Shown: piece by piece, positions 31,701-56,178 of the stretch
Layout of the letters: each line of letters begins with the position of its first letter
Position numbering within the stretch: the first letter of the stretch is position 1
Source of the DNA: Fibrobacteria bacterium
GTDB lineage: Bacteria > Fibrobacterota > Chitinivibrionia > Chitinivibrionales > FEN-1185
Length of the DNA: 64,000 nt
Reading direction: 5' to 3'
Assembly: GCA_037447435.1 (NCBI GenBank)
Contig: JBBIGR010000011.1
Span: 1-64,000 of the forward strand
Position numbers and translations under genes: made by a program
Notes under the pieces: generated by a model
Seen by the model: only the letters and a program-made list of their open reading frames with translations
Database searches by the model: none
Told to the model about the DNA's origin: nothing

Positions 31701-32466
31701 CAAAAACGTCAATCATGTCAGACGGGGTATTTCTTGCTGCAGACCCTTGACTTCCCCCGTCGGTCAAAAAAGACGCGCCGGCATGTATAATCATGAAAAC
31801 GGTTTTGTGGCCTGCCGAATCGACAATGATACCGTTATTGTTTTTAAGGCCGTAGAACGGGCCGTTCTTGACATCAGCACTTTTTACGGCGTCTTTGACA
31901 AATCGCATTAAGCCGACGGTCTTCCTTGCATAATAATCGTCCCAGGATTCGGACGGCTCCTTATTGCCGGGGGAATAATAGCTCATCGGATTAGGAACAT
32001 TATACATGACATCATTGCCGAGGGGAGGGTACACCGTATATTCAATTTGCAAATTGCCGCGGGATACCGTTGAATAATAATTTTTTAAAAACCTGAGTTG
32101 ATTGGCAAAATAGGCATAGTCATGGGGAAGGCTGTCGAAATGGTAAACAGAATCTTTTAAATAGTATTTTTGCTCCTGTTGATCGTGCTTTACTCCAAAA
32201 AGTCCATCGCCGGTGGTATTGGGGTTATTATCTGCATGAGACGAGTCGAATTCCACTCGGATCGCGATAATATGAATAATATCCGGGCCTGAGGCTGTTC
32301 TTTTAAAAAGAAGGGAACCGTTATGATTTGAAGCATTGTCAACAAGATGCTTTTTGGAATATGACCCTTTTAATTTTGCAAGACCAAATAACGGAGAAGA
32401 AAAGGACGGCGGAGTCGAAAGAAAAATAAAAACCGAAGCGAGTAACAAAACATTGTTTGTTTTCAT
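28795..32466 (-). CDS. Immune inhibitor A (M6) peptidase-like domain lacking HExxH, FG-GAP repeats, T9SS CTD
   Basis: IIAIRVEF, IIHAG, NQLARQLGIPDLY, SAWVRAFMGW, EYYLIENRQ, GILVWHID; DIDRD/DINGDG/DFDNT repeats; FSYPNP..PGVY CTD. Confidence 0.8.
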   Translation of the reverse strand: MKTNNVLLLASVFIFLSTPPSFSSPLFGLAKLKGSYSKKHLVDNASNHNGSLLFKRTASGPDIIHIIAIRVEFDSSHADNNPNTTGDGLFGVKHDQQEQKYYLKDSVYHFDSLPHDYAYFANQLRFLKNYYSTVSRGNLQIEYTVYPPLGNDVMYNVPNPMSYYSPGNKEPSESWDDYYARKTVGLMRFVKDAVKSADVKNGPFYGLKNNNGIIVDSAGHKTVFMIIHAGASFLTDGGSQGSAARNTPSDMIDVFVTNQFFNYFKDTLRLKVPGIEVSTSGTDSLLIDEIMMSSETSNQDGLNFGIHGIMVNQLARQLGIPDLYSTTSGMTAVGGFCIMDPYGYSAANGFIPPWPSAWVRAFMGWDTPQMIGIGQSNISNVKAINIAGKNDTSILQVPLNDHEYYLIENRQRNLSADASIFNWDTLRGSHDTMVISSGLPVNLKSSKVVDSVVGPSNVIVSAANYDVGIPASGILVWHIDENVIRDRLYNDLLNADSNFKAVSLVEADGIMDLGIMGRDLFYQPVFDFGGAEDVFPHRTISDTGTKLIDSMDQWSRPSTHANDGGQTYLKLKFSPLNASTKQIEISKIYGNLVQDFSNESFSIAVNWNYLAKGWPKHALPEPLFEPSVFGSSSTKKFSVLSASGRFYAFASDTSTVKSIKSKDSFYPFLASRVPGKYTNSSFSSDTISKIPISYDSIPGVFTFGTTIDDSLIVPSKTKRLFTISSTGYNSILIDSTANAIFKQQPSTNVCKLLSPTNKWAIGCDSGFIAIGNIGDYKSVSSSIDLQPGESQRSPVNALAVLPRRPESMVCIQSNGRLSICSIPDLKTTRSVSIKNGFPPYSIVSGDIDRDSAPEIIVSDSRKGIIVYKEDLTIAPGWTEFPDTSVRSKSSINLVPVSLSDINGDGFLDIIYGDVQGVYALNYKGVSLTGWPYQLDNRFFRGNVTCAPVILKKGKDPLVIYQSPTGENETFEIDKIRSYDKSKGMISFVRKDGTTDTITGLTSSYIDSALAFGDSLVTPVVLPGGFVDAIDKNGKRPLKTIGSNQLFSDWPLSVGGGIGTSPLVVDFDNTNNLDLFSVSNNGLIYRWKLDKSVIGDSVIWQEAGFDGSRPFAYLKDLPGMTVTETAPITFFSYPNPTNSRGFDGKWVWFKYKFNGPASNVRLDVFSLSGLHILSKTGLSGSYPDYNELPPVSLATFGPGVYRCRLAADIAGKKYVQYWKMAVIK

Positions 32467-32580
32467 ATAAACAATTTAAACTATCCCGTCTGTTGTCAAT
32501 AAACTATTTGTCCGAAAGCCTCAAAATGTGTCCATATAAAATAAGCTGCGCGAAATGCTTAGATTTATATACAGCGACAA

Positions 32581-34965
32581 TTAGAATTTAAATAACATTG
32601 AGGCTCTCCATTGACCGTCGCGAGCTCCGCTGCTGCCGTCGGCAACTATGCCTTTCATAAATCCTTCGGGTGAATGAATAAAAGACCAGTCGAAATTTAA
32701 ATTTCCTATCTTGAAGCCGACGCCCAAGGTTAATTCGTACCGTTGCCCGGCTTTGTCGAACAAGTTTCCGATTCTGAGGGCAAGAAAATTTGCATACCAG
32801 AATTCAATACCTGAACAAACATTGACTTCTGCGAGTTTGTCGTGAAGGGAAGTTGAATTGTCGTTCAGTAATCCGGTAAATATGGCTTTGTAAAACGGAT
32901 CCGGCGGACGGTCATCTTGGTAGTTTTTAACGATTTCACGGTTAAAATCGACCAATAATTTAAGGTCGACAAACGATGTTTGAATTGCCCGGTAGGCAAA
33001 TCCCAGCTTTACGGTAAAAGGAATCGGATCTTGTGAGTTTTGGGAAATATAATAAATTGACGGCCCCATATTTTGCAGGTTTAAGCCGATGTCGAAGTTC
33101 TTTACGAACAGGTTACGTTTTAATAGTCCTGCGTCAATAGCAAATGTTCTTCCCGTACCTTCGTCGCCGCCGCCGATACCGGGGGCGAGTGCGCTGTTTG
33201 CATATTTTACATTGATTCCTGCCGACAAATCTTTGGCTAACGAAATACCGTAAGAAAGGCCAAAAACACCTTCCCAAGAACGGGCACGACCTTTTATTCT
33301 GCCTTCCTCATCGGTCAATTCATTGGTGCCGAAATTGATAAAATTAACTGTGAAGCCGATTGTTCCCCAATCTTCCGTTGGGAAAACGCCCGCGAGATAA
33401 CAGTGCCATAAATCCGGTATTTTAAAAGCAGGCAACAACGATTCATAAAATAAAAGGACTTGATTTTCAGCATAATTATATTGATTTACCGCTTCCGATG
33501 TCGCAAGCCATACATCACGGCCTTGCATGGCAATCCCATGTACATTGTCGCCTTTAATGGCATTTTTAGAATGGAAAACTTTCCATTCAGGAGCCATATA
33601 ATATGAATTTCCTTTTTGATCGGTTTTCAATTTTCCCTGTGTGTAACTAATGGCGCCGTTATTGGTGCCAAGCCAAATAGAACCAGAACTATGTTCGGCA
33701 ATCGACGACACCGTGCTTCCTGGAAATTTATATCTTTTCCAACTTGCCTCATCGTAAATAGCAACGCCGTTTTCTCCGCCGACCCAAACGCGATTTTTTG
33801 AATCGACGAACAAGGTTTTGACCGAGTTGCTCATCAAGCCGTTCGATGTATCAAAAAGGATTTCCGACGAGTCTTTAATTATTGTCAACCCTTTCGACGT
33901 ACCGATAAGAATGTCGTTGTTTTTGTTAAACGCAAGTGCGTTTATAGAAGCGGCCAAAGAGTCGGTTTTCATTTCGATTCTGTTCCATTTACCGTCGGCA
34001 TTTACAATTGCGCCTGCATCGGTTCCCACACCGATATCGCCTCGTTGACTGACGCTGAGGCATGTAATAGCGTTTGAGGGAAGGCCGTCAAGAACCGAAA
34101 AAGGCGTCCAAATCGTACCGTCATAACGGAAAAGGCCTTTTTTCGTACCAACCCATACTCGCTCAAGAGAATCAACAACCAGAGTAGTAACGCTCTCATG
34201 AACGGCAATTGAAAAAGGAATTTTTAATTCGACAAGCTCTTCAAACTCCAAATCTTTTTTTGTGAGTATCAAAGCGATATCATCCGACATTTTGTTTGCC
34301 TTGGAAGAATCTACGCGGCTCGCAATTTTACCGAAAATTTGCGTTGAATTTCTATCGGTTTTAGAAAGTGACATTATGTCGTTTGTCAACTTTTGAATGG
34401 AAGTTTTCTTGGTAGTTAAAAGCGAGTCGGATATTTCATTTTTTAAATAGTTTTCCAGGGATTTAGTTCTGATTTGTTCAATTTTATTAAATGATTTTAA
34501 TTGGGAAACTGCCTGTAAAATAAGGTCTTCATTGTCGGTTACCAAATATTTTTGGGCAATCGACGTTAAATTTTCCCCTTGATTTATCAGGTGTCGTTCA
34601 TAGGATTCCCATACTTTTCCATTGAACCTCACGATCCCGTGATCCGTGCCGGCCCAAATTTTATCACTTCCCCCAAAATCTTTTTTTCGTTTTGAAGCAA
34701 TCGAAGTTAAAATGCTTCCGGTTTGTGCGGAATAAATTTTCCATGAATTTGCCAAAGGATCTTGGCCGAGGCCTGCCGGATTGAAAAATGTTGCGTTGGC
34801 ATCATCTGCAACGGCGGTAAATGCTTCCCCGAGGCCGGTTGCCCGAGCTCCCGGAGGGAAAACAAGAGTGATAACCGCAGATTGGCCGACAGCAAAGGAA
34901 GAGGAATGAAAAAATGCTATGACGGCAAATGAAACGGTTAAAATCTTAAAAAAATTGAATCGCAT
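32581..34965 (-). CDS. PorV/PorQ-family outer-membrane protein with a large inserted two-component-regulator-type beta-propeller
   Basis: PPGARATGLGEAFTAVADDANATFFNPAGL N-terminal motif; WVGT/GLPSN/GLMSN repeats; barrel C-terminus ending in F. Start at the ATG at 34965 (GAGG RBS). Confidence 0.8.
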   Translation of the reverse strand: MRFNFFKILTVSFAVIAFFHSSSFAVGQSAVITLVFPPGARATGLGEAFTAVADDANATFFNPAGLGQDPLANSWKIYSAQTGSILTSIASKRKKDFGGSDKIWAGTDHGIVRFNGKVWESYERHLINQGENLTSIAQKYLVTDNEDLILQAVSQLKSFNKIEQIRTKSLENYLKNEISDSLLTTKKTSIQKLTNDIMSLSKTDRNSTQIFGKIASRVDSSKANKMSDDIALILTKKDLEFEELVELKIPFSIAVHESVTTLVVDSLERVWVGTKKGLFRYDGTIWTPFSVLDGLPSNAITCLSVSQRGDIGVGTDAGAIVNADGKWNRIEMKTDSLAASINALAFNKNNDILIGTSKGLTIIKDSSEILFDTSNGLMSNSVKTLFVDSKNRVWVGGENGVAIYDEASWKRYKFPGSTVSSIAEHSSGSIWLGTNNGAISYTQGKLKTDQKGNSYYMAPEWKVFHSKNAIKGDNVHGIAMQGRDVWLATSEAVNQYNYAENQVLLFYESLLPAFKIPDLWHCYLAGVFPTEDWGTIGFTVNFINFGTNELTDEEGRIKGRARSWEGVFGLSYGISLAKDLSAGINVKYANSALAPGIGGGDEGTGRTFAIDAGLLKRNLFVKNFDIGLNLQNMGPSIYYISQNSQDPIPFTVKLGFAYRAIQTSFVDLKLLVDFNREIVKNYQDDRPPDPFYKAIFTGLLNDNSTSLHDKLAEVNVCSGIEFWYANFLALRIGNLFDKAGQRYELTLGVGFKIGNLNFDWSFIHSPEGFMKGIVADGSSGARDGQWRASMLFKF

Positions 34966-35060
34966 GTCAAAAAACCTCTTTCGCAATGTCTTTTCGTTAT
35001 TTTTAAACCAAGACATTATTTTTAAAAATCCCCTGAACATTTGATAGGGTATAACACGAC

Positions 35061-35645
35061 TTAAACCGGTGTAATTTCCTTCCAATTTGGAAGAGAAACG
35101 AATTCGCCCGGACGCATAAGAGGAAGCATTCCGATTTCGGTTGTTTCGCGCAACTTGTCTTTACCTTGATATTTGCAAAGTTGACAACCGCAACCAAGAT
35201 GGAATGGAGGAATAAGTTTAGGATTTTCGAAAATCTGCTCACGCGTTACAAACCGTCCTTTTGAAATTATTTTTGCACAAACGGGATCATCCCACTTGAA
35301 GTTATAATAATAAAATTCGGTTCCTTCCTTATCTCCGGCTTCGACCTCATTAATATTCGCTTCCATTAAGGAATTCCATTTTGAAAGCAAATTATCTTGT
35401 TGGACACTCGACAAACTTTTAATATTTACGTTTTGATCGCTAAGATATTTCCGTATTTCTTCTTGCGACGGCTTGAAATCACAAATATTATCGCGAGGAC
35501 TTCTTCGTATAATGGAATATATGCCACTTCCGTGGATTATTTGAGAAGGTATATCATCTTCATTTTTAGCCTTATTCATACCGATTCGAACGGCAATAAG
35601 CATCGCTACCAGCAATAACGCAATTCCAACCAAAGCAAGAATCAT
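35061..35645 (-). CDS. Single-TM hypothetical protein with MuF-like C..PPxHxxCxC motif
   Basis: N-terminal TM; DDPVC and PPFHLGCGC; AAGGA RBS before the ATG at 35645. Confidence 0.6.
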   Translation of the reverse strand: MILALVGIALLLVAMLIAVRIGMNKAKNEDDIPSQIIHGSGIYSIIRRSPRDNICDFKPSQEEIRKYLSDQNVNIKSLSSVQQDNLLSKWNSLMEANINEVEAGDKEGTEFYYYNFKWDDPVCAKIISKGRFVTREQIFENPKLIPPFHLGCGCQLCKYQGKDKLRETTEIGMLPLMRPGEFVSLPNWKEITPV

Positions 35646-37262: not shown

Positions 37263-38354
37263 TTATTTTTTCTTTCCTAAAGCTTTTTTCTTTACAAGAG
37301 TTGCGGGTTTTGTATCCGGTTTCTTTTCCTCGATGCCTTTTAGGTTGTTTATGCTTCTGTCAATGTTTTCAATGAGATATTTCGACAAAAGAAAAGTCGC
37401 GTTTTTATCCGGAGTCCTGACCCAACGCGTTCCGTCGGATGATTTCTGTTTGCCAAGCACAATCGTTTTTTTCGTGCCATTGTCCAAAGATGCCGTTACT
37501 ATGCAATAGGGTTTTGAAAATCCAAGGCTATCCTCAGAAAGGGAAGCGTTTGATTCAAAATCCATTGCATTTAAGTTCGACATTGCATTGAGGATTTTCT
37601 CGACTTCAGGTTCTTTCACACTGTCTTTTACAGGCGAAATGAGAGTCCATTTGGCTTTTGCGGCGCTATCGGTAGGAGAAGGCGCAGACAGTGCAAGCTC
37701 TATTGTCGTGTCTTTTTTTACAATAGAAACCGATTTTACTGCAGCTTTGTCAAACTTGGCGATAGTTTTATCTTTCCATCTGTTTTTCTCGGCGAAAAAG
37801 CTGTATTTGACACTACCGCTCACCAAATAAACATCATTCGATCCCTTCATCCGGACAAAATTCGAACTCCAATCGGCACCATTCTTTCCAATGTAAAATG
37901 TGGACGCAGGACCTTTGTCGGATACAAGGTCGACCCGAGTTCCCTTTACCGTATCAACTTCCAAATCCGCTTGCTTAGCTACATTTTGGGAAATGAGATC
38001 GTCCTTTTTCATGGACTTTATTTTTTCCAGAACGGTCTGCAACGATGCGCTGTCGGCAGGATATTCATCGGACGATTTGTTCCTTTGCGTAGTATCACTT
38101 GTTAATAACGGGGATTGCGCTGCATCCGCCTTTTTGCCGGAAGTTACAAACCATGCCGTACCATGCCTTACAAGGGTAACCGAGTCGTGTGAATCGCAAA
38201 TGCTTATAGAATTGCATTCGGCCTCGGAAAATTGCGGAAAAAAAGACAATGATTTTTCCGATGGCTGCTTATTGCTTAGTTGATTAGAAATAACAATAAT
38301 GCCCACTATGACAACGAGAATAATGGCCAATAAAGGTAGTTTTTTCATATTCAT
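37263..38354 (-). CDS. DUF4340-domain protein (accessory to the Gld-type ABC system)
   Basis: N-terminal TM; YPAD, FYIGK..FVR..VYLV..WKDK; duplicated domain; last gene of the ABC operon. Confidence 0.82.
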   Translation of the reverse strand: MNMKKLPLLAIILVVIVGIIVISNQLSNKQPSEKSLSFFPQFSEAECNSISICDSHDSVTLVRHGTAWFVTSGKKADAAQSPLLTSDTTQRNKSSDEYPADSASLQTVLEKIKSMKKDDLISQNVAKQADLEVDTVKGTRVDLVSDKGPASTFYIGKNGADWSSNFVRMKGSNDVYLVSGSVKYSFFAEKNRWKDKTIAKFDKAAVKSVSIVKKDTTIELALSAPSPTDSAAKAKWTLISPVKDSVKEPEVEKILNAMSNLNAMDFESNASLSEDSLGFSKPYCIVTASLDNGTKKTIVLGKQKSSDGTRWVRTPDKNATFLLSKYLIENIDRSINNLKGIEEKKPDTKPATLVKKKALGKKK

Positions 38355-40099
38355 GATGCTTTTTCCTCCGTTTTTTCCGTAACGACAGTCGATTGTTCGC
38401 GGCGCTTAAAGAAAATGAATAACCCGGTTAATACGACGAGAATCGGCATAAGGAGAATATTGGTAAATCTTACCACCGAATACTTGACTGACCCTTCCTT
38501 TAAATTATCCTTTGAAATAGTCCTGTCAATCATTGCGCGGGAACGGATCGAAATCAAGTTATCATCGGTCGATAACCAATCGACAACATTGAGAATAAAA
38601 GCGACGTTTCCGGGCATGGCGAATTGTGGAGTAAGAAAATCGGAATCACCGATAAGCACCAAATGCCGTCCTTTATTTTGCGCAACAACCGTTCTTGTTT
38701 GATCGGCAGGATTCAAAGCGATTTTGCTGAGAGAATCGGACGTTCCCGGTGTAACTTCTTTTACCGGAGGCACCGGCTTGCCGGCAAAATAACTGGTAAA
38801 ATTGCCGTGTAAATAAACCGCCAAATTACTTTGCTTAAATCCTTCGGCAGGCGCAGCCCATTTTTGTTGAGGATTCAAATCGAAATTTCCGCCGACGGTC
38901 CAACTCTTTTTCGATGATTTAATTAACGCCGTGGCTCTTACCGAACCATCATCCTTCACGTTTTTCTTTACTTCATTGTCAAGCGGAACCGTGAGCTTTA
39001 TAGGAGAAACCCAAGGTAATACTGCTTCGCCAAGCGATGAAACCGCAGGATTGTCGGAGTCTACATCTTCACGTAAAATTCTCAGAAAATAGGGGTAATT
39101 AACAGCGACATTCATTTGGAACGGACCTACTTTTTGGGGAATCTGGACTTGACCGCAGGCTGCGTCACAAACCAAATAATTTTCTAATTTTGCGCCGTAA
39201 TGTTCCATGAGCTTTAAAATGGCGGGATCTTGCGGAATTGCGTTTGCGCCATATTGATAGGAAATTTTGATCGCATCTGCGCAAACAATCAAATTCCCGC
39301 CTTTCATAAAATATTGATCTATTTCAAACAGAGTTCTGTTTGTAAATGTGGTGCCGCCCAAAATGACCAGTGATTTAAGGGTTGTGTCAATTTGTTTTCC
39401 ATCATTCACATCCACTGTTTCCACGGAATAGTTTTTACCCAAGCTCTCAAAAACCGGTTTGTATTTTTCATGTACTTCCTCGGGATTTGGTTGCATTTGC
39501 ATTCTCTGCCGGTACTCCGGAGGAATGTAGGGGAGCGTGTCGGTTTTAAGAATACCGACTCTCGGACTGTCTTTTCGTGCGACTTTTTGAATTGCCTGAG
39601 TCAAATCGTATTCGAGGTTTTTAAGATCCTGAACAACGGGCATGACTTCTTTTTTGTCGCCGTACAAAACCGCTATACCCATGAATCCGTTAATGACTTG
39701 TGCTTTATCCTTTTCATAGGTTTGCATTTGCAATTCAGGAATTCCCATTTGAACCGCTTTGCGTTTTTCTTCCTCATTTTTTGTGGGGTCCTCATAGGTA
39801 ATATGAAGGTTTTTTCCCGCATATGCTTTATATTCGGCAAGCATATCGCGAACGTCCGATTGGAGGGACTTCACATTTACCGGAAGGTTTTTAGAAAAGA
39901 AAACCTTGATATTGACTATATCATCAAGCTTTTTCAATATCTTTTTTGAAGCCGGTGAAATGCTGTAAATTTTCTTTTCCGTAAGGTCGACTCTAAAAAA
40001 AGCTTTTGTCGAAATGTAATTGATAACACCGACAAATCCGAGAATAATCAAAGCATAAATGATTAATTGAGAACTGTTCTTTATTTTTTTTGTTTCCAT
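38351..40099 (-). CDS. GldG-family ABC transporter auxiliary protein
   Basis: FRVDLTEKKIYSIS, LEYDLT, IDQYFMKGG, LIGDSDF, NVVDWL..LISIRSR, C-terminal TM. Start METKK. Confidence 0.9.
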   Translation of the reverse strand: METKKIKNSSQLIIYALIILGFVGVINYISTKAFFRVDLTEKKIYSISPASKKILKKLDDIVNIKVFFSKNLPVNVKSLQSDVRDMLAEYKAYAGKNLHITYEDPTKNEEEKRKAVQMGIPELQMQTYEKDKAQVINGFMGIAVLYGDKKEVMPVVQDLKNLEYDLTQAIQKVARKDSPRVGILKTDTLPYIPPEYRQRMQMQPNPEEVHEKYKPVFESLGKNYSVETVDVNDGKQIDTTLKSLVILGGTTFTNRTLFEIDQYFMKGGNLIVCADAIKISYQYGANAIPQDPAILKLMEHYGAKLENYLVCDAACGQVQIPQKVGPFQMNVAVNYPYFLRILREDVDSDNPAVSSLGEAVLPWVSPIKLTVPLDNEVKKNVKDDGSVRATALIKSSKKSWTVGGNFDLNPQQKWAAPAEGFKQSNLAVYLHGNFTSYFAGKPVPPVKEVTPGTSDSLSKIALNPADQTRTVVAQNKGRHLVLIGDSDFLTPQFAMPGNVAFILNVVDWLSTDDNLISIRSRAMIDRTISKDNLKEGSVKYSVVRFTNILLMPILVVLTGLFIFFKRREQSTVVTEKTEEKAS

Positions 40100-40103
40100 T
40101 TTA

Positions 40104-40787
40104 TTACTCCCATTTCCTGCTGCCCAAGGAACAGACATTTAAGAACAAAAAGAAGCCGATAACCGAAGCATAATAAATTAAATCTCTGGTATCTATTACA
40201 CCTCTGCTGATGCTTTCAAAATGATTTCCAAGCCCGAGATAAGAAAGAACGGGTACCAGAAAAGAAGGGCTTGCCATGGTAACAAACGGATTGCCAACGA
40301 TAAAAGCGACGATTTGGTTTTCCGTAAGGGATGAAACCCAAAGCCCGATTGCCAAATATGCACCGCCAAGCAAGAGTGCACCGATATACTGGCCGACAAT
40401 TTGTCCCATATCCGGATGCCCGAGTATGGCGATTGTCACAGGAATGGTAATTGACAATAAAACAACTATGGAAAGCAATGCAAAGCTGGCGAGGAATTTG
40501 CCGACAACGACTTCAAAGTCGCTGATGGGCCATGTTAAAAGCAATTCAAGGGTTTTAACTTTTTTCTCTTCGGCCCAAGTTCGCATTGTAATAGCAGGAA
40601 CAAAAAACAAAAATACCCAGGGCATTAAGTCGAAATAGCCGCGCATGTCAGCTTGGTTAATAAGAAAAAAACCCTGAAAAAACAAAAAAGTGGTCGTAAT
40701 CAAATAAACCGTAATAAAAATATAGGCGATAGGCGATAGGAAATACGCCTTGAATTCTTTTTTGAAAATAGCTGAGATATTTTGCAT
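40104..40787 (-). CDS. GldF-like ABC-2 permease
   Basis: FKKEFKAYFLSPIAY, PAITMRTWAEEKK, GKFLA, SSLTENQIVA, HFESISRGVID. Confidence 0.9.
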   Translation of the reverse strand: MQNISAIFKKEFKAYFLSPIAYIFITVYLITTTFLFFQGFFLINQADMRGYFDLMPWVFLFFVPAITMRTWAEEKKVKTLELLLTWPISDFEVVVGKFLASFALLSIVVLLSITIPVTIAILGHPDMGQIVGQYIGALLLGGAYLAIGLWVSSLTENQIVAFIVGNPFVTMASPSFLVPVLSYLGLGNHFESISRGVIDTRDLIYYASVIGFFLFLNVCSLGSRKWE

Positions 40788-40791
40788 TATA

Positions 40792-41736
40792 TCAACCCCT
40801 TGTCAGTTGTGTGAATACGTCTTCGAGGCTTGCCGAATGGTGCTTGAGTTCATTAAGTGTCCACCCATTTTCGTAAACGCATTTATATATCTTCTCGCCG
40901 ACATCCTCCCGAGCTCCGGTTGTGACCGATGCTTCAAGCCATTCTCCGCTTTCTTTAATGTCTACTCGAGTAATTCCCTCGATAGCCGATAATTTAGTAC
41001 GGAGTGTTTCTTTGTCGGCTTTGACCCGAATAAGATAGCCGTTGGATTTAGACATGCTTGAGGTAAGTTCGTCGGGTGTTCCTGAGGCGACAATCGCTCC
41101 TTCATTGATAATAAGGATTCGATTGCAGGTCGCAGCCACTTCGGGAAGAATATGTGAACAGTAAATAACGGTTTTTTCCTGTCCCATAGATCGAATAAGC
41201 TCGCGGATTTCGATGATCTGGTTAGGATCCAACCCGGACATAGGTTCGTCGAGAATGAGAAGGTCGGGATTGTGTAACATTGCTTGTGCTAGCCCCACGC
41301 GTTGACGATATCCTTTTGAAAGCTTGCCTGTCTGCCTGTTTGCCATTTTCGCAAGACCGCAAACCGCGTACATTTCGTCTATCCTGGATTTTAAGGTAGC
41401 ACCTTTTAATCCGCGAATTTCTCCGACAAAACGCAAATACTCGCTAACCTGCATGTCATTATATAAAGGATTATTTTCTGGAAGATAGCCTATTTTTTTC
41501 CGGACATCCAGGTCATTTACTTTATTATCGAGGCCATTGACTTTTACGGAACCGCTCGTTGGAGGAATAAAGCAGGTAATCATGCGCATTGTTGTTGTTT
41601 TTCCAGCGCCGTTTGGTCCTAAAAAACCGAGGATTTCCCCTTTTTTGACTTCGAAATTCAGATTTTTTACTGCATGAAAATTACCGAACTTTTTATTAAG
41701 TTCCTTAACTTCAAGCATAATTGGATTATTGCTCAT
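40792..41736 (-). CDS. GldA-like ABC transporter ATP-binding protein
   Basis: GPNGAGKTT, LSKGYRQRVGLAQA, ILDEP, SLEDVF. Confidence 0.93.
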   Translation of the reverse strand: MSNNPIMLEVKELNKKFGNFHAVKNLNFEVKKGEILGFLGPNGAGKTTTMRMITCFIPPTSGSVKVNGLDNKVNDLDVRKKIGYLPENNPLYNDMQVSEYLRFVGEIRGLKGATLKSRIDEMYAVCGLAKMANRQTGKLSKGYRQRVGLAQAMLHNPDLLILDEPMSGLDPNQIIEIRELIRSMGQEKTVIYCSHILPEVAATCNRILIINEGAIVASGTPDELTSSMSKSNGYLIRVKADKETLRTKLSAIEGITRVDIKESGEWLEASVTTGAREDVGEKIYKCVYENGWTLNELKHHSASLEDVFTQLTRG

Positions 41737-45749: not shown

Positions 45750-46290
45750 TCTGTTCTCCTGGTTAAAGAAACTGAACTATTCAACCATGATGGACGTTGT
45801 GCAGTTCTATTACAAGTATAACCAACTACCCGTAGTATGTCAAGAGTTAAATACGCACAATAGATAGCGTGATTGCTATCGGCTTAAAAGGCAAAGGGTT
45901 ACTGCAATGATCTTTTTTATATAATTTATTAAACGAAGCAAATTGAATGCTATCAGTAGTTTGAATCAGGTGGACGACTTAACTGTATGGGGGGGAAAAG
46001 AAATTAAATTAGAACCTATTTAATTCATTAAAAATTAATAGGATAGGAATTTATTTATTGAATTTAAATACATTGAAATTCCAAACCCATTGAAAGGTTG
46101 GGCCACGATTACAAAAAGGGGAGTATACTCTATTCTGCAGCCTAAAATGGGTTTAGTTATGGATTCAAAAACAGCGTTTGTATTTTATTGCACATACCAA
46201 TAACCTCTTTTATATTTAAAACTCATACTATATTTCGTCAGCGGTATCATATTTCTTGCTAACACTCAATTGGTTTACATCGGAGGTTAC

Positions 46291-48381
46291 ATGAAGAAGT
46301 ACGAGGCGAATGCTATCCGCAATGTTTGCTTGCTTTCACACGGCGGTGTGGGCAAAACTTCCCTTCTTGAAGCTTTGTGTTATACGACAAAAGGTACCAA
46401 CAAATTAAATAAAGTTGCCAACGGAACCAGCATATTCGACACACGTCCCGATGAAAAAGAACGTAAAATGTCGGTTTCTATGAAGCTGGGCTTTTGTGAA
46501 TGGAATAACGTTAAGATAAATATTCTCGACACACCCGGTTTTCTTGATTTGCAAGGTGATGCAAAGGCTGCTTTACGCGTCGTTGAATCCGCCGTTGTTT
46601 TAATAAGCGCTCTTGATGGAGTGCAAGTCGGTACCGAACTCATATCTCGTTTTATAGATGAATCAAAAACGCCCAAACTGTTTTTTGTAAACGGTACGGA
46701 CAGGGATAATGTCGATTTCGAGAAAACAATCGCAAATTTAAAAGAAATGTACGGCACCCAAATAGCGCCATTATCAATACCGATCGGCGCGGGACAATCT
46801 TTTAAGGGTATCGTAGATCTTGTTACAAAAGAGGCTTTCATCTATGAACGAGAAGGCCTTGGAATCGGTAAAAAATCGGATATTCCTTCGGACATTTCCA
46901 AAATGGTAGATAGTATCCGGGCGACGCTCATGGAATCTGTTGCTGAAACGGATGAAAGTCTCATGAACAAATATTTCGAAAATGGTGAATTGACCATAGA
47001 AGAAATAAAACTCGGATTGGCAAAAGGATTTGAAGCCGGATCAATATTCCCTGTTCTTTGTGGGAGTGCAACTCTCAACATTGGAACCGATATTTTATTG
47101 AACACAATTATTTCCCTATGCCCGTCACCATTATCGAGAAAAACCATTCCTGTGCTGCAGGATGACGAAATAAAAAATCTATCATTTACCGAATCCAGTC
47201 CGGCATCGGCATTTGTTTTTAAAACAATAGCTGAAGAACATATTGGCGATTTCAATTGTGTCCGGGTATTCGGCGGAAAAATTTCAACAGGTAAAGACAT
47301 TATTAATGTAACGAGAAACAGCACCGAGCGAATTGGAAATATGTATTTCATGCGGGGACACGAACGAATAGATACACAGGAAATCGGGTTCGGCGATATC
47401 GGTGCGCTTTTAAAAATGAAAGATACCCATACGAGTGATACTTTGGCTGAAAAAGGAGTGTTGTTCGCATTTCCAAAGATTAAATTCAATGAACCATTGG
47501 TTAATGTCGCAATTGTGTCCAAAAACAAGGGCGATGAAGATAAAATCGGTTTGGGAATAGCCAAACTTCATGAAGAAGATCCGACTTTTATTTATAAATA
47601 TCATGCCGATATTAAGCAATCGGTTTTGTCTGCAATGGGCGACATTCATATCGATTTAATACTCGAAAATTTAAAGCATCGCTTTAAAGTGGAAGTCGAA
47701 AAAAAACAAACGAGAATTTCTTACCGGGAAACAATCACCAAATCTGTCAAATATGTCGAATATACTCATAAAAAACAATCGGGCGGTGCCGGTCAATATG
47801 CAAAAGTGGCCATCGATTTGGAACCCCAACAACGAGGCAAGGGATACGAATTTGTCGATAAAATTGTGGGCGGCGTCATAGACCAGTCCTTGCGGCCAAG
47901 TGTCGACAAAGGGGTTCATTCGAAGCTTGAAGAGGGGATATTGGCAGGGTATCCGATTGTCGATTTAAAAGTGTACCTTGTCGATGGAAAAACCCATCCC
48001 GTGGATTCAAAAGACATTGCTTTTCAAATAGCCGGACGGGAAGTTTTTAAAATAGCCTTTGAGCAGGCGAGCCCAATACTATTGGAACCTATTTCCGACA
48101 TGCGAATTACGGTTCCCGATGAATATACAGGAGATGTTATGGGAGATCTATCTTCGCGTCGGGGAAAAATTGGCGGCATGGAACCGGAAGGAAAAGCACA
48201 AACCATCGTAGCGAAAGTTCCCGAAGCGGAAATACAAAACTATTCCCAGGCATTGCGTGCATTATCGCAAGGACGAGGATATTTCTCCAAGTCCTTTTCC
48301 CATTACGAACCTGTTCCAGGTGACGTTGCCAAGAAAATCATCGAATCATCTAAGCATTCGATGACAGAAGTTGATGAATGA
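46291..48381 (+). CDS. fusA: Elongation factor G paralog (EF-G2/FusA2 type)
   Basis: IRNV..HGGVGKT, LDTPG, KKQSGGAGQY, GYPIVD, HPVDS, LLEP, GDVMGDLSSRRG. G motifs are divergent and the gene is outside an str operon. Confidence 0.92.
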   Translation: MKKYEANAIRNVCLLSHGGVGKTSLLEALCYTTKGTNKLNKVANGTSIFDTRPDEKERKMSVSMKLGFCEWNNVKINILDTPGFLDLQGDAKAALRVVESAVVLISALDGVQVGTELISRFIDESKTPKLFFVNGTDRDNVDFEKTIANLKEMYGTQIAPLSIPIGAGQSFKGIVDLVTKEAFIYEREGLGIGKKSDIPSDISKMVDSIRATLMESVAETDESLMNKYFENGELTIEEIKLGLAKGFEAGSIFPVLCGSATLNIGTDILLNTIISLCPSPLSRKTIPVLQDDEIKNLSFTESSPASAFVFKTIAEEHIGDFNCVRVFGGKISTGKDIINVTRNSTERIGNMYFMRGHERIDTQEIGFGDIGALLKMKDTHTSDTLAEKGVLFAFPKIKFNEPLVNVAIVSKNKGDEDKIGLGIAKLHEEDPTFIYKYHADIKQSVLSAMGDIHIDLILENLKHRFKVEVEKKQTRISYRETITKSVKYVEYTHKKQSGGAGQYAKVAIDLEPQQRGKGYEFVDKIVGGVIDQSLRPSVDKGVHSKLEEGILAGYPIVDLKVYLVDGKTHPVDSKDIAFQIAGREVFKIAFEQASPILLEPISDMRITVPDEYTGDVMGDLSSRRGKIGGMEPEGKAQTIVAKVPEAEIQNYSQALRALSQGRGYFSKSFSHYEPVPGDVAKKIIESSKHSMTEVDE

Positions 48382-49758: not shown

Positions 49759-50622
49759 TCAGTTGCCAATTTTATAGGTTGTTCGGAATTTCCAAAGAGG
49801 AGAACCTTTTGCAAAATGAGGCATGAGCCTGCCTCGAGCAAGGGTATGCGAAAAATAGGGTTGGCGAACTGCGCGTGCAATAATATCCTGAACCGAGTCA
49901 TATGAATATGCACCCCACAACGGTATGATATCGGCAAAATTTTTTCCTTTTAATACGTACGACGTTGCATGGGTATACCCAACTTTCTTCGCAGCATTCC
50001 AAACTCGTTCGTCAACCCGCCCGAACGGGAAAGATATGCTTGTCACTTCCTTTGCTATGATATCCTCAAGAATTCTTTTTGAATCACACAATTCTTTTAA
50101 TAATTCGGAATCCGAGAGTAACGTTAAATTTGCATGTGTCAATGTATGGCTTCCGATTTCATGCCCGAGCGAACTGATTTCAATAATTTGGCTTCTCGTT
50201 AAGTGGGTTTGCTTCGGCAATGCGTCCCATGATGATGTTTTGCCAAGAAAGCCGGCTACAGGGAATACAGTCGTTTTTATTCCATGACGCTCGCAGATGG
50301 GCAATGCTTTTGAATGAAACGTATCAAACCCGTCATCAAAAGTCATTACTATGGAATTTCGACGAGACAACGGAGGTAATGATGAAAAATGAGAAACCGT
50401 TACAAATCGAAACCCTTCACCACGAAGTCGGCAGAGAAGCGAGTCGAATTTGAATGAAGAATAATATGAACAATGCATTGCCGGAATATCAGAAATGGAA
50501 TGAAAAAGTAAACCGATGGGCCCGCTTGATCTTTTCTTTTTACCGAAAAATAAAACAGCGAGTATGCCGCATAAAAATGGAAAGGCAATAATGGAAAATA
50601 GTAATAAAAAAAGTATGTTCAT
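49759..50622 (-). CDS. Polysaccharide deacetylase (CE4/IcaB-like), membrane-anchored
   Basis: LLFHSI, MTFDDG, HEIGSHTLTH, SFPFG; N-terminal TM. Confidence 0.9.
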   Translation of the reverse strand: MNILFLLLFSIIAFPFLCGILAVLFFGKKKRSSGPIGLLFHSISDIPAMHCSYYSSFKFDSLLCRLRGEGFRFVTVSHFSSLPPLSRRNSIVMTFDDGFDTFHSKALPICERHGIKTTVFPVAGFLGKTSSWDALPKQTHLTRSQIIEISSLGHEIGSHTLTHANLTLLSDSELLKELCDSKRILEDIIAKEVTSISFPFGRVDERVWNAAKKVGYTHATSYVLKGKNFADIIPLWGAYSYDSVQDIIARAVRQPYFSHTLARGRLMPHFAKGSPLWKFRTTYKIGN

Positions 50623-50643: not shown

Positions 50644-51510
50644 TTAATGGTTTTGTTGACGGTTAAAAATTTTCGACAATAGATTGGAATCGTTCTTTTT
50701 CTTTGCGCCGGTAGCGCCTTGTCTTGCTTTGTTTTTAAGAAAATTTACCGATGTGTAATACAGATATTCGGTATTGCTTGGCGGCGGAACACTGCCTGTT
50801 TTTATGGGTGAGCCGCTATTTGAAATGCTTTTTTCAAGCTCTGATGTCGTAGTTGGAACCTGTTCCGAAACCTTGGCTGGAGTTTCTTGAATCGTAAATT
50901 TTTGGGTCGCGGGAGGGTTCGGATGTCCGGCGGCAATTTCATCGGGATTAACCAGATTTTTTTTCCCGATATTTTCCGTTTGCTGTGTCTGAGATTGCAA
51001 AGATGATTGTTGCTCGGGGTTAAAAAAGGAATCAATTCCTTTTTCAACATCATCATCTGACATGGTTAAAGAAGGCATTGCCACAGGGCCAGAAAGCATT
51101 GTTTCTATATTTTGTTTAATTGCAAATAGTGCCGCTTTCAGTTCCTCTATATGGCGAGCAACGCTTGAAGAAACAGCCGATAAGGAAATTTGGCGGTCAA
51201 ATATAGCTGCACAAATCGTGTCGTCGTCGACAAGCGTGATAAGAAGATTTTTTGTTTTTCCGCAGTGAGACATCATGCTGAATTCCTTTTCGCCAATAAG
51301 GCCAGCAATTCCCTGCGTGGAAGCGAAGCTTCCAACAATGAGGGCAGCAAGTGCGGACATGTCGAAAAGGGCCAACGTTCCCTGGCTGGCAAGAAGCCTT
51401 GTATCTTTATTAACAAGGATCGCCGACAGGATCTTCGTCTCAAAAACAAGACTTTGCAGAATCGAATTCAACCTGTCGATGTCTTCCTTGTAAAGGATGA
51501 CGTCGCTCAT
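50644..51510 (-). CDS. mglB: MglB-like Roadblock/LC7 protein with long C-terminal extension
   Basis: LVNKD..LAS.G...[23 protein letters not shown]; translationally coupled to mglA. Confidence 0.85.
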
Positions 51511-52853
51511 TGAGGTTTGTCTTTATTAAATATTTTGCCAAAGAAGCCGCTTTGCGGTTTTGTCTTCGGATTAACCGGCCTTTTTATTTTTTTTCTCTGA
51601 CGATCTGTGTTGACAGAGGTGAAATAGAGAGGCTGTTCCTCTTCGCCGGGCTGCAACGGCTCTTCGGAGTAATTCTGTTGCGGATATTGCGGAATTTGCT
51701 CCGCAGATTCCTCAGGCGGTTCATAGACGTTGTAACTCCCTTGTTGCGGAGGAGGATACGCTATTGGTTGTGTTTGTTGAGGGGAAGCCGGTTGTTGCAA
51801 CGGTTGGGGTTGCTGTGCCGATTGAAGGTTTCGTAATTTACGTTGTTTTTCTTCAATTTCTCTTTGATATTTTTCAATTTCCAAATCAAGTTCTGTTTTT
51901 TCGGCGGACGACGGTTTGAGTTCTTGACTGGAGTAACCAGATGTTTCAGGTTTTTGAAATGGTGATGATGCTTGAGCCGACATTGGTTCAAGGTTAATGG
52001 CGCCATAATCATAATAATCTGATGCCGGCGGTTGTTGCATAGGCGCTTTAGTAGGAGCCGGTTGAATCGGAGTAGGTTGCGGTACCGAAAAAATGTCTTG
52101 TTGCGGCATTGGTTGCGCAGCAAAAGGGCTCTGTTGGGCAATAGGTCGTTGCTGTTGTTGAACAAAAAACGGATCCTGAGCTGGAACAGGCTTGGGTTGT
52201 ATGCGTTGAGGAGCAGGCGAAGCTATTGGGGCGGCTTGAGGTGTCGGAGCCCCATAGGTTGGTCTGGCATATTTTTTATTCAAACTGTCGATAACAATTT
52301 TTCCAATTATTTTAAGCGATTCGAAAACGCCTTTGCCCTGGCTGGCAACGGCTTCATTCCATTGGTATCCTAATTTATTAACGGTTTTATCAATCGCTTC
52401 TACAGGGAGTGCATTCGGAAGATCTCTTTTATTGTATTGCAAAACAATCGGGACGCTTCCTGGTTGATAACCATATTCAGCAAGATTGTCATGAAGGTTT
52501 TGAAGGCTTTCAAGGTTTTCCTGCATTTTGTCTTGAGCAGAATCAACGACAAACACAACGCCATCAACGCCGCGCAAAACAAGTTTGCGGGTTGCATTAT
52601 AATAGACTTGCCCCGGAACCGTGTACAATTGAAACTTTGTCGAAAAACCTTTGATCTTGCCTAAGTCAAGCGGCAGAAAATCAAAAAACAAAGTTCTGTC
52701 GGTTTCAGTGGCCAACGAAACCATATCACTTCTATAATCAATGGGGATTTTCCGGTGAATAACCTGTAAATTTGTTGTTTTTCCGCTTAGCCCAGGACCA
52801 TAATAAACAATTTTTACACTAATTTCCCTTATTGCGTAATTAATGGAAGCCAT
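51507..52853 (-). CDS. mglA: MglA-family small GTPase with a P/Q-rich C-terminal extension of about 250 aa
   Basis: [56 protein letters not shown]. Confidence 0.93.
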
Positions 52854-53018: not shown

Positions 53019-54071
53019 TTAATCCTTTTTACTTATATCGCATTGGGATAATAATCCTTCTTTAACGAGCGCTGTAACATCGGGAGCGTGGAAACCTTTC
53101 TCAAAATGAAACTGTATTAATGCAATTCGCCGTTTTTGGTCGAATCTGTCCTGGGAATATTTTTCTTTAATGGTCAAACATTGATCGACTCGATTTCTGA
53201 GAACCGTCTTTTGCAAAAAGAAAGAAGCCGCTGAAATGCCTGCAATTGCTGCAATGATCATAATAACGGTTGAAAGCGCATAAATTGAATTTTCCCATGA
53301 GGAGGTTTGTTCGCGAGCGGCAGGTTTTGCAAGTGGAGATTGCTTAACAGATGAAGGAGCGATTTCAGACTCCATCCATAGCCCGAAGATTATTTCATAC
53401 ATCCTGTAAGTAAAAAATACCGATTTTTCGCAAATCGAGCCGACGGAAGATGTCCCGTCTATCAATGAATGAACATAGCCGACGGGATCGTACAACGGTG
53501 ATCCAAGCGGAGATGTAGTCTTTTTTCTCGAACCGTTTGGAGAAATTGAAAAAACGGTTTCGTCGGAAATGTTACGATGCATTCTTTTCCACTCATCCGA
53601 TCTGCGCATAGCTTCCATGGTGATAGCATCGGCAGGAAACATGACGCCCGCAATAATGTATTCATCCATACTTTCTAATGAATCAAATCTGTATTGGCCG
53701 TCGTCCCATAAAAAAAGGCTGCACGCTAAGTCTTCAATGCTCATTTTTAAAAGCGAAATCAACTCCTCGCTTGTAAGGTAGTTTCTGCTCGTCAATTCCT
53801 GCGAAAACAATCGCATTTCACCTTGACATAAAATAAGAAGTTCGTTGAGTTCGGCTTCCGAATATCGTTTGGCGAGTATTAAATAGTTGAATAAGAATGT
53901 TTGTAAATTGCTGTCGGCGTTTCCTGCGGCAACAATTTTCCCCTGTGAAAAAATCACAAAACCTTCCTCTTGGCCGTACGAAAGTACCAGTTGTCCGGTT
54001 TTCCCGTCATGAGAAATCAATTGGAAAATATCCGCCAATTGAAATTCACGCAAGCTGCCCCTTAAAGCCAT
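53019..54071 (-). CDS. DUF4388 (PatA-N/PATAN) domain protein with C-terminal TM
   Basis: MALRGSLREFQLADIFQLI....KTGQL, LFLWDDGQYRF, MEAMRRSDEW. Confidence 0.88.
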   Translation of the reverse strand: MALRGSLREFQLADIFQLISHDGKTGQLVLSYGQEEGFVIFSQGKIVAAGNADSNLQTFLFNYLILAKRYSEAELNELLILCQGEMRLFSQELTSRNYLTSEELISLLKMSIEDLACSLFLWDDGQYRFDSLESMDEYIIAGVMFPADAITMEAMRRSDEWKRMHRNISDETVFSISPNGSRKKTTSPLGSPLYDPVGYVHSLIDGTSSVGSICEKSVFFTYRMYEIIFGLWMESEIAPSSVKQSPLAKPAAREQTSSWENSIYALSTVIMIIAAIAGISAASFFLQKTVLRNRVDQCLTIKEKYSQDRFDQKRRIALIQFHFEKGFHAPDVTALVKEGLLSQCDISKKD

Positions 54072-54072
54072 A

Positions 54073-56178
54073 TTATTCTCCCCGAATTTTCATTTCTTTA
54101 ACAAGCAAAGATGCTGCGCGCCCGATAAAAAACGCGTTATACAAAACGCACAAGACAAAAAACGGCAAAATAACTCCATGTAAAAGCCACGATGGAAAAA
54201 CAATGGCTGGGAAGAGAATGAATGAGTAAATTCCATAAACGATGCTTGTTAAAAGTAGGATGGGAATCGACAGCCACATCGTCGAATTTCTTTGGACCAT
54301 TCCTGCACCGGGAAAAACAACATCGAGGATCAGGGCCCGCAGAGAAGAAAGACGTACGCTTTTAAATTGGATCTTCGACATTATTCTTTGCCGGATGCTT
54401 TCGTTGCGGATATGTTGGGTCGAGTTAAAGCAATCCTGGCAAATTCCTCCTCGTTTGCATTTACGGCAAATAGGTGTCTGGCACAGCTTGCAAGAATAAA
54501 TTTTCTTGACAACATCGCGGGACCAAACGGTCATATCCGATACTATCAGGATGCAAAAAAGAATAAGTGAAAGTATTGCATAAATAAAGAAGGAAAAACC
54601 AAAAAAAGTGACGCCGAACCTTTTGTCAACGCCTTGCGAATGGTTTGCGGAATACGTGAAAATATGTTTCCAAAAGTAGCCCGGAGTATAATCGGGTGAT
54701 ATTAACTGCCTGGCGATGGGCCAATCTTTGGAAAAAAAATCATCGCTTATTTTAATATGGGAATTTATCAGGAGTGGATTTATCCTTGCTGCTTTGGAAA
54801 TATACTCCATACCTTTTGCTGTTTCCATTGCATTAAAAAAATATTGGCCGCAATTAAAATAGGCTGGCGCAAAATTAAAATTTGATTCGATGCATTCGAG
54901 ATAGGTGTTTTTCGCTTCATTCAGCTGGCCGGATTGGTACAAAACATTTCCGAGAACGGTGAGTACGACCGGGTCTGTTGGAGCCAATTGCTGCGCTTGT
55001 CTTATGTGAGATAACGCATTTTGGGTATCTTGCTTCCTTAAATATGAAACTGCCATGCCCGTATGAATCAAAAAATTCGACGAATTTGTTTGTGTTGACT
55101 TTTGTAAATATTCCTCAAATTCAGGATAATATCCTTCGTCGAGCGATTTTTTTAATAACATCGGTGCGCTTGCAGGGTCATTGCACATGTAAAACATATC
55201 GTCGACCTTTAAATTTAAAGGATATAGCATGAAAATTCCCAAGACTATACCTCCAAGGACCTTGTCGCGACCGTGCAAATGGCGCCAAAGGAGGAAAAAA
55301 GTGATCCAAATCCATGCGGTAAATCCAATAAATATCAAAGCGAAGAACAGTGCGCTCGATAATAAAACCCTGGTTTTAATGCTATATTTTTTGGGAAGCA
55401 ACTCCGAAACCGAATGCAATGATTGGGGGAGGTATTTTGCCAGCAAAGTACCAATAATTCCTACGACAAAAAATTCGAATACAATGGTAAGCCAGGTGTG
55501 TAATTGGTAAACAAGTTCCAATTGAATTTCCCATGAATTCAATACCTTTTCGTACAGATCCTTAATTTTTAAAAAAGCATTTTGGGGGTTTGGGTAGAGG
55601 TTCGATTTAATATCTAATATCAATGGCCATATGCAATTCCTGTCGAATATGCCTGCCCAAGATCTCTGGGAACCGTTTAATGAGCTTGTCGAGGAATAAA
55701 CATCGTTATACAAAAGGATTTGGCTAACTAATGGCGCCGATTGGATACCGCGCATCAAGGACAATAGCCTCAATTTTGTAAGACATTTTTCCTGCCACAA
55801 AGGTAAACCGCAGCGTTCAAATTCCAAAGATAATGCAAAAATCGATCCGGGATCCGATTTGGTTGCGGAAATGGCTTTCGAAAACCAAATAGAAGAAACA
55901 GATGCGGTATCATTGCTGTTTGCTAATCCGATGCAAAAACAATACCATACCGACATTGTGTCAAAAGTTAATGTATTTACGTTGATGGAAAACCCTGAAG
56001 CCGGATACAGGGATAATCGTGTTGAGTCTAAGCCGGTCAATTTAAATACGCTATCCCGGGTGGTAAGAGCGGAAATGAATTCGGATTCCCAAAGAATAGG
56101 CAATTCACGGGCTGTCGATCGAATGACCGACAACGAAATAATTATGAGAAGCGCACAGGAAATAAAACGATTTTTCAT
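54073..56178 (-). CDS. Multi-pass membrane protein with TPR repeats and a Cys-rich zinc-finger-like motif
   Basis: TM segments; TPRs (LGNVLYQSGQLNEA, AYFNCG); CKLC..ICRKC..CQDC; PGAG TM tail. Confidence 0.8.
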   Translation of the reverse strand: MKNRFISCALLIIISLSVIRSTARELPILWESEFISALTTRDSVFKLTGLDSTRLSLYPASGFSINVNTLTFDTMSVWYCFCIGLANSNDTASVSSIWFSKAISATKSDPGSIFALSLEFERCGLPLWQEKCLTKLRLLSLMRGIQSAPLVSQILLYNDVYSSTSSLNGSQRSWAGIFDRNCIWPLILDIKSNLYPNPQNAFLKIKDLYEKVLNSWEIQLELVYQLHTWLTIVFEFFVVGIIGTLLAKYLPQSLHSVSELLPKKYSIKTRVLLSSALFFALIFIGFTAWIWITFFLLWRHLHGRDKVLGGIVLGIFMLYPLNLKVDDMFYMCNDPASAPMLLKKSLDEGYYPEFEEYLQKSTQTNSSNFLIHTGMAVSYLRKQDTQNALSHIRQAQQLAPTDPVVLTVLGNVLYQSGQLNEAKNTYLECIESNFNFAPAYFNCGQYFFNAMETAKGMEYISKAARINPLLINSHIKISDDFFSKDWPIARQLISPDYTPGYFWKHIFTYSANHSQGVDKRFGVTFFGFSFFIYAILSLILFCILIVSDMTVWSRDVVKKIYSCKLCQTPICRKCKRGGICQDCFNSTQHIRNESIRQRIMSKIQFKSVRLSSLRALILDVVFPGAGMVQRNSTMWLSIPILLLTSIVYGIYSFILFPAIVFPSWLLHGVILPFFVLCVLYNAFFIGRAASLLVKEMKIRGE

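Follow-up and report, generated by a model that had tools for sequence, protein, structure and literature searches.

A long MglA tail in Chitinivibrionales carries a motif lost together with type IVa pilus genes and resembled, in one genus, by the end of MglB

Introduction

Two neighbouring genes in a 64,000-nucleotide stretch of DNA from a Fibrobacteria bacterium (assembly GCA_037447435.1, contig JBBIGR010000011.1, positions 1 to 64,000; hereafter the window) encode the small GTPase MglA and the Roadblock protein MglB. From the nearest named records we assigned the genome to the order Chitinivibrionales. The initial annotation of this DNA noted that both proteins end in long disordered tails with similar termini. 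It suggested that a GTPase and its GTPase-activating protein (GAP) had come to share a docking motif and a membrane anchor.

The best-known MglA/MglB pairs are those of Myxococcus xanthus and Thermus thermophilus (6izw, 6h5b, 3t12). The pair described here has the same group-1 motifs, the same coupled Roadblock MglB with an acidic C-terminal helix (Ct-helix), and the same basic lysines in alpha-5 of MglA. The differences lie at the ends: the M. xanthus and T. thermophilus MglA chains have 195-203 residues, tags included, whereas here the G domain is followed by a tail of 253 residues that holds a motif linked to pili and ends in a helix. MglB, too, is longer than its M. xanthus and T. thermophilus counterparts, by about 125 residues.

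In M. xanthus MglA acts on type IVa pili through SgmX, and a two-hybrid assay gave no interaction of MglA with PilB, PilT or PilM (PMC7519303). How PilB reaches the pilus machine and how MglA activates the motor are called unknown in a later paper (PMC11580455). In the MglA-SgmX-FrzS-SopA system, as here, MglA is tied to pilus function, but there the effector is a separate tetratricopeptide repeat (TPR) protein, whereas here MglA itself would carry the link, in the form of a linear motif. Here we report the distribution of both tails across 81 genomes of the order. At its end the MglA tail divides into a terminal helix and a motif, FTSV-PVNP, that is missing in all four lineages in which we found no core pilus genes.

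Results

The locus encodes a tailed MglA and an extended MglB

The stop codon of mglA overlaps the start codon of mglB in the sequence ATGA (Table 1). The order of the genes is thus mglA-mglB; in Myxococcus it is mglB-mglA. The window genome (G000) belongs to genus g1. It has one MglA and one Roadblock match, and its pilMNOPQ-like, pilT-pilC and pilB genes lie elsewhere in the genome (pilM at C12:12861-13925, pilB at C15:44231-46126, pilT and pilC at C5:156689-158989).

That the two proteins are MglA and MglB, as first annotated, is borne out by their motifs and folds. MglA has every signature of group 1: the G1 P-loop (GPGLSGKTT, residues 19-27), an intrinsic arginine beside the G2 threonine (R53-T54), the G3 sequence TVPGQ (78-82), the G4 sequence NKxD (NKRD, 141-144), and a coupled mglB within four genes, here overlapping the mglA stop. 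With 448 residues it falls outside the filter of 150-240 residues for single-domain proteins used in the main survey of bacterial small GTPases (Wuichet and Sogaard-Andersen, PMC4316618). It is a tailed variant of group-1 MglA rather than a standard member. Since that survey excluded proteins of more than 240 residues, the tailed form may have gone undescribed for this reason. We found no description of a tailed MglA or of the FTSV-PVNP motif in the literature, mostly open-access papers without their supplements; some such proteins could be included in the tables of PMC4316618 and PMC6785124.

MglB has the Roadblock/LC7 fold (PF03259, 27.4 bits against a cut-off of 23; E 8e-17 to 6izw_B), and its AlphaFold2 model has a predicted local distance difference test score (pLDDT) above 90 across most of residues 11-130. 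The alignment with 6izw_B reaches residue 157, and in it MSDDDVEK pairs with MSDDDIDN of the M. xanthus Ct-helix. As in the pairs already described (PMC6785124), this D/E-rich helix goes together with basic alpha-5 residues of MglA, here K181 and K185, both invariant in our orthologue alignment. The NCBIfam model NF052242 gives 50.7 bits against a cut-off of 200; because the name of the model points to Thermus MglB, this low score says nothing on GAP-like function. About 25 of the roughly 150 extra residues first counted on MglB belong to this known acidic helix region; the rest is a genuine extension, rich in S, Q, T, N and K rather than in P and Q. C-terminal extensions of MglB, either an acidic helix or proline-rich, are known (PMC6785124). 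The nearest named relatives of the window MglB, in records titled Fibrobacterota or Chitinivibrionales, are 53-55% identical over the full length.

Table 1. Features of the mglA-mglB locus in the window, and related loci in other genomes of the order
Feature	Position	Strand	Description
mglA	51507-52853	(-)	448 aa; group-1 MglA G domain and 253-aa P/Q-rich disordered tail with six conserved islands
MglA G domain	52269-52853	(-)	residues 1-195; E 1e-73 to T. thermophilus MglA 3t12
MglA tail island 1	51981-52019	(-)	residues 279-291, INLEP; resembles INLLP start of the order's PilN
MglA tail island 2	51825-51899	(-)	residues 319-343, predicted helix
MglA tail island 3	51717-51740	(-)	residues 372-379, Y.VY; patchy
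LYFTSVN	51609-51629	(-)	MglA residues 409-415; first half of pilus-linked module
Basic stretch and PVNP	51564-51596	(-)	MglA residues 420-430; second half of pilus-linked module
MglA terminal GFFGKIFNK	51522-51551	(-)	likely MinD-type membrane-targeting helix
mglB	50644-51510	(-)	288 aa; Roadblock domain, acidic C-terminal helix region, ~125-aa further tail
MglB residues 150-163	51022-51063	(-)	equivalent of M. xanthus MglB Ct-helix
MglB residues 242-265	50716-50787	(-)	MglB-specific NTxYL..LKxK helix (families f1, f4, f5), interrupted here by YYTSVN (50743-50763)
MglB terminal LLSKIFNR	50659-50688	(-)	likely membrane-targeting helix; only families f1 (7/8) and f4 (2/5)
DUF4388 protein	53019-54071	(-)	single predicted membrane span (residues ~261-288); upstream neighbour, conserved; does not track pili
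Polytopic TPR membrane protein	54073-56178	(-)	conserved CxxC-CxxC-CxxC zinc finger; conserved upstream neighbour
Polysaccharide deacetylase	49759-50622	(-)	N-terminal membrane span; downstream neighbour retained most constantly (40 genomes)
P0076 of G031	L212:1222-2061 (G031:C129)		tail-only; FTSV-like motif, PVNP, terminal helix
G020 Roadblock genes	L117:2277-3959 and L074:4447-5429
Orphan short MglA loci of family f5	L119:4611-5495, L210:1450-2151, L211:1462-2103

The ends of MglA and MglB resemble each other in the window genome

Both proteins end in YxTSVN, a basic stretch and KIFN, as originally reported, and the resemblance is beyond that of shuffled sequences. The quoted ends were right except that NDS had been dropped from that of MglB and the last four residues from both. 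LYYTSVN occupies MglB residues 250-256, and KIFNK and KIFNR follow the motif by 31 residues in MglA and 30 in MglB. Among 33,944 six-frame pieces of open reading frames (ORFs) of the genome, LY[FY]TSVN occurs twice, in mglA and mglB. With a hidden Markov model (HMM) built from 40 MglA tails of other families, the window MglB end ranks second, after MglA, among 3,985 ORF ends (3,104 scored). It scores 19.0 bits, which none of 5,000 shuffles reaches (4,864 scored, maximum 10.6). The six MglBs of genus g1 score 19-27 bits and the next MglB 10.3. Profile-profile comparison by HHalign of MglB with MglA tails of other families gives 94.6%, E 7e-8. The 6-of-7 match is weaker evidence when taken alone, as 51 of 3,000 shuffled tail pairs also give one.

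Is the likeness a recent copy? The third codon positions differ, with 1 of 6 shared here and 1-3 in congeners, so there was no recent DNA copy, and recent gene conversion between mglA and mglB can be ruled out.

No other protein of the window genome was found to carry the module; the third-ranked ORF end is a secretin with an incidental PINP. A profile search of 1.84 billion library representatives gave 75 matches: 28 with an MglA G domain, one MglB, one tail-only protein, 39 that resemble pieces of MglA tails by eye, and six unrelated proteins matching the helix alone. It revealed no third protein family with the motif. Searching with the MglB tail returned two relatives only, a profile search of the PDB gave only chance matches to chemokines, and the ESM Atlas gave no usable match.

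Motif and helix are widespread in MglA and local in MglB

We compared 53 MglAs and 55 MglBs from the order set. Four MglA rows were left out (a frameshifted front piece, an orphan paralogue and two that are 3'-open), as were four MglB rows (a second Roadblock gene, a 554-residue fusion and two that are 3'-open). For the tree analysis the open end of genome G013 was restored, both motif halves being readable.

The tail is an order-wide feature of MglA, with total protein lengths of 313-829 residues. Its end reads FTSV...PVNP...GFxxKxF, and the expectation that motif and helix would be conserved in orthologues was confirmed: a loose FTSV is found in 48 of the 53 MglAs, PxNP in 47 and the terminal helix in 52. 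The strict LY[FY]TSVN is local (3/53 MglAs, 1/55 MglBs). The terminal helix follows the pattern of MinD, with a basic/aromatic C-terminus and two hydrophobic pairs four residues apart (52/53 MglAs, 9/55 MglBs); the order consensus is KGFLSKLFNK, to be compared with KGFLKRLFGG of the Escherichia coli MinD membrane-targeting sequence. Here the helix closes a long disordered tail attached to a Ras-like GTPase and, within a single family, is present on the GAP as well. Of 296 genomes of the phylum, 55 gave a match to the MglA tail end, and every one of them belongs to this order. MglAs in records titled Fibrobacteria also have a long tail with the same mid-tail helix, similar to island 2, and a different end. 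In the Fibrobacterota- and Fibrobacteria-titled loci L124-L133 the tails are proline-rich, the mid-tail helix is acidic and the end reads FLTPEEL...YPTRRMP; priA-like genes lie downstream of mglB.

MglB is another matter. The proteins are short in families f2, f3, f8 and f9. Families f1, f4 and f5 form one clade on our tree, and there the MglB tail ends in an NTxYL..LKxK helix. FTS[MV]N lies inside this helix in genus g1 only (6/55 MglBs), and the MglB terminal helix is confined to f1 and f4 (9/55). The shared design is therefore real at the protein level in genus g1 and is not a general property of the pair. In G020 two Roadblock genes follow mglA, and elsewhere in that genome a 554-residue Roadblock protein has a membrane span and a GLFRRL-type end. 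Several genomes of f5 have a second, short orphan MglA (about 200-290 residues), with no adjoining mglB in three loci.

Loss of FTSV-PVNP coincides with loss of type IVa pilus genes

A search of the PilT family first showed that genomes without FTSV-PVNP also lack the top-scoring PilT. We then searched the 81 genomes for pilM and for orthologues of pilB and pilT, with flhA as a control. The full MglA end is readable in 71 of them; the other ten are unreadable. FTSV-PVNP is present in 61 of the 71, and these have pilM in 60 cases, pilB in 58 and pilT in 57. All 61 have at least one of the three genes: 54 have all three, six have two and one has one. The ten genomes without the motif gave no orthologue of pilM, pilT or pilB in any case. 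They comprise the seven genomes of genus g22 (82-100% complete) and G022, G010 and G014 (90-94%), from four families, and they keep the terminal helix, the GTPase and MglB. For two genomes, G014 and G063, the MglA end was read after the pilus loss was known, and neither has the motif.

On a five-gene tree of 55 genomes the motif and the pilus genes each need four changes, and all four independent pairs agree. The control behaves differently: flhA is present in 54 of the 61 motif-plus and five of the ten motif-minus genomes and needs eight changes, and about seven of its eight pairs show no change in the motif. Since flhA does not track the motif, a flagellar link was rejected. The search for flhA gave nothing in four of the six g1 genomes (G001, G002, G004, G005), though pilus genes are kept in all.

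Which parts of the tail follow the pilus genes? The terminal helix does not; it is present in 46 of 47 pilus-plus and all nine pilus-minus MglAs examined. FTSV and PVNP are found in none of those nine, with remnants in G010 (YYFTT, without PVNP) and G014 (YYVSS). The end of the tail thus splits into the terminal helix and FTSV-PVNP. Island 1 is present in 32 of 47 pilus-plus and one of nine pilus-minus MglAs. It is lost in three of the four pilus-minus lineages and kept in G022, which has no pilM. INLLP of PilN is the PilM-binding ligand, and FTSV-PVNP bears no likeness to it. Island 2, the only part of the tail that the AlphaFold2 model makes confidently helical (residues 321-344), is kept in three of the four pilus-minus lineages. 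Island 3 shows a weak likeness to an acidic-aromatic motif in the MglBs of family f5. In one genome, G048 (92% complete), mglA, mglB, pilM, pilT and pilB were all not found.

The tail survives alone in one pilus-plus genome

Genome G031 (98% complete) has pilM, pilT and pilB. At its mglAB locus stands an acidic tail-only protein of 269 residues, P0076, which ends in the module. It is flanked by the same upstream gene and the same deacetylase as in two congeners. Neither a G domain nor mglB was found at the locus or elsewhere in this genome with three queries. An insertion-sequence-like ORF piece lies just past the deacetylase.

Discussion

All four lineages in which core pilus genes were not found lack FTSV-PVNP, and the likely role of the motif is therefore to dock the MglA switch on the pilus machine. 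We propose that the terminal helix of MglA is a membrane anchor, that a cytoplasmic part of the type IVa pilus machine is the docking site of FTSV-PVNP, and that MglB of genus g1 would be brought there in the same way. We put the chance that this is right at about 45%, a little short of even.

The proposal has four steps. Given the motifs of the two proteins, the GTP cycle of MglA would run under MglB control as in Myxococcus. The last helix, by its likeness to MinD, likely binds the inner membrane and would keep the tail there with or without pili. FTSV-PVNP, 10-25 residues from the membrane helix, would bind a pilus-dependent component, as the co-loss suggests. The simplest candidates are the cytoplasmic core proteins, PilM first, PilB second, then PilT or PilC; PilM is put first because it is a fixed membrane-side part, bipolar in M. 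xanthus. The weakest step is the last, in which MglB tails would bind the same machine and the MglA-like copy in genus g1 would allow the GAP to join MglA at the site or vie with it there. Least certain in the whole proposal is a single binding site for which MglA and MglB compete.

Other systems offer parallels. The MglA tail may do the linking job of SgmX in Myxococcus. FtsZ, with its disordered linker and FtsA-binding terminal peptide, likewise joins a GTPase to a membrane-side partner (10.1101/2023.08.29.555414); this is an analogy only, with no sequence likeness, though PilM is FtsA-related (a weak ftsA match). In GltJ of M. xanthus short linker motifs engage MglA and one domain takes two rival motifs (PMC11135422), but there the motif sits on the effector and here on the GTPase and the GAP.

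Several observations weigh against our proposal. The co-loss fits direct and indirect binding alike. The sign test gives p 0.125, the best possible result, and falls short of significance because there are only four independent pairs; the genus-level probability of coincidence, 1/C(31,4)=3e-5, is post hoc. G080 (84% complete) has the motif, and only pilM was found there. G022 has genes 44% PilB-like and 56% PilT-like, against 69% and 72-73% in family relatives, and we call them paralogues by identity alone. The tail motifs of MglB in f1, f4 and f5 also follow the pilus (acidic-aromatic motif, 24/33 pilus-plus against 0/7 pilus-minus; LKxK helix, 26/33 against 0/7), which speaks for the proposal, but the patterns were tuned by eye and the pilus-minus genomes represent two lineages. 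The tail-only case comes from a single assembly. The hydrophobic moments of the terminal helices are only moderate among ORF ends (0.64 for MglA, 78th percentile; 0.70 for MglB, 89th), and an 11-residue window gives no signal. Finally, AlphaFold2 places the MglB motif inside a helix (residues 248-271, pLDDT 86 at 251-260) and makes the MglA motif a coil (pLDDT about 40).

This last difference in predicted structure is one reason to ask whether MglB resembles MglA only by convergence or chance within an unrelated MglB helix, so that MglA docks as proposed while MglB binds otherwise and there is no competition. We consider this quite possible, if short of an even chance. The FTS motif is found in the MglBs of one genus, close relatives having YVSMS, YVTSLH or YYTAVN in its place; PVNP, nearly invariant in MglA, is absent from MglB; and the codons argue against a recent copy. 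On the other hand, motif, basic spacer, helix and spacing all match, as the HHalign score reflects, and all six MglBs of the genus keep the motif while the linker diverges. Asked whether f1 gained the MglB insert or f4 and f5 lost it, an approximately unbiased (AU) test of f4+f5 gave p 0.12, compatible with an ancient duplication and later loss.

The motif might instead be tied to the pilus through a dedicated adaptor or regulator, like SgmX, FrzS or a c-di-GMP effector, that was lost together with the pilus genes. Such an adaptor explains all the co-loss data equally well. It has a precedent in M. xanthus, where the link runs through SgmX, FrzS and SopA and SgmX was not seen to contact PilB or PilM directly (PMC11580455). 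No adaptor of this kind lies in the conserved neighbourhood, and we hold this explanation to be rather unlikely, though well worth keeping in view. An 865-residue protein with N-terminal TPR repeats is encoded at L136:3153-5747, two genes upstream of a second PilT/PilU-family gene.

The DUF4388 and TPR/zinc-finger proteins encoded upstream of mglA in families f1-f5 had been suggested as partners of both tails, which could also co-condense at the membrane. A site shared in this way has a precedent in M. xanthus, where one zinc finger of GltJ can take either the C-terminal helix of MglB or a motif from a linker (PMC11135422). Neither gene follows the motif, however. DUF4388 gives full or near-full-length matches in the motif-minus G010, G014, G022 and five of the seven g22 genomes, with short weak matches only in the remaining two, and it was not found in three genomes of genus g16, which keep the motif. 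The zinc finger is intact in G010, G022, G033 and G051. By hydropathy and the positive-inside rule, a common guide to membrane-protein topology, the TPR repeats would be periplasmic. Being kept where the motif is lost and, in the case of DUF4388, not found where it is kept, the two are poor candidates, and we think this explanation improbable. Least probable of all is an autoinhibitory or allosteric role within the switch, with the motif folded against the G domain or against the dimer of Roadblock domains, like the MglB Ct-helix: the MglA allosteric pocket does take acidic helices of MglB or RomR (PMC6785124) and K181 and K185 are invariant here, but in G031 the motif is kept although neither a G domain nor MglB was found, which makes fold-back on the switch unlikely, four lineages keep Arg53/Gln82-type MglA and MglB without the motif (checked in three, the G014 G domain lying off its contig), and in the AlphaFold2 model of full-length MglA no structure is predicted with confidence for the motif.

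Returning to docking on the pilus machine, a wider version would hold that Chitinivibrionales fused a self-sufficient, membrane-anchored pilus-docking peptide to MglA, placing the GTPase directly on the motor base without an SgmX-type effector, that a genus-level mimic on the GAP competes with it for one site, and that the peptide can outlast the deletion of GTPase and GAP as a protein of its own. As a whole we regard this as doubtful.

A motif of about 30 residues that follows pilus genes across four independent losses is short enough to be synthesised and used to probe PilM, PilB, PilT or PilC for a regulatory site. The deletions that occur in nature also separate a membrane leash that does not depend on pili from a motif that does, and they show that MglA, MglB and their membrane neighbours have a second job, independent of pili. 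The TPR/zinc-finger protein is a candidate partner for that role; its three-CxxC zinc finger is conserved in 36 of 36 aligned orthologues, pilus-minus genomes included. Chitinispirillum alkaliphilum, whose genome has twitching genes, is a cultured member of the group (PMC4814513).

Neighbouring genes and other observations

A scan for promoters and terminators at the locus gave a signal no better than shuffles. The deacetylase downstream of mglB is retained even where mglA and mglB are deleted. Two genes away from it, on the other strand, lies an elongation factor G-like gene (46270-48381, 703 residues) that adjoins a methylthioribose-1-phosphate isomerase-like gene, an arrangement also seen repeatedly in families f1, f4 and f5. 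Two more DUF4388 proteins are encoded in the window genome (G000 C17:22796-24691 and C2:230695-231153).

Further along the window, positions 37263-41736 hold an ABC transporter cluster with ABC_transp_aux, DUF7088 and DUF4340 domains, which we take to be GldA/F/G-like. Three large genes in the same orientation occupy 25496-35085. They encode an 1100-residue WD40/peptidase MA-like protein, an 834-residue propeller protein with a weak PorV match, and a protein of 1223 residues with no Pfam match at 1e-6.

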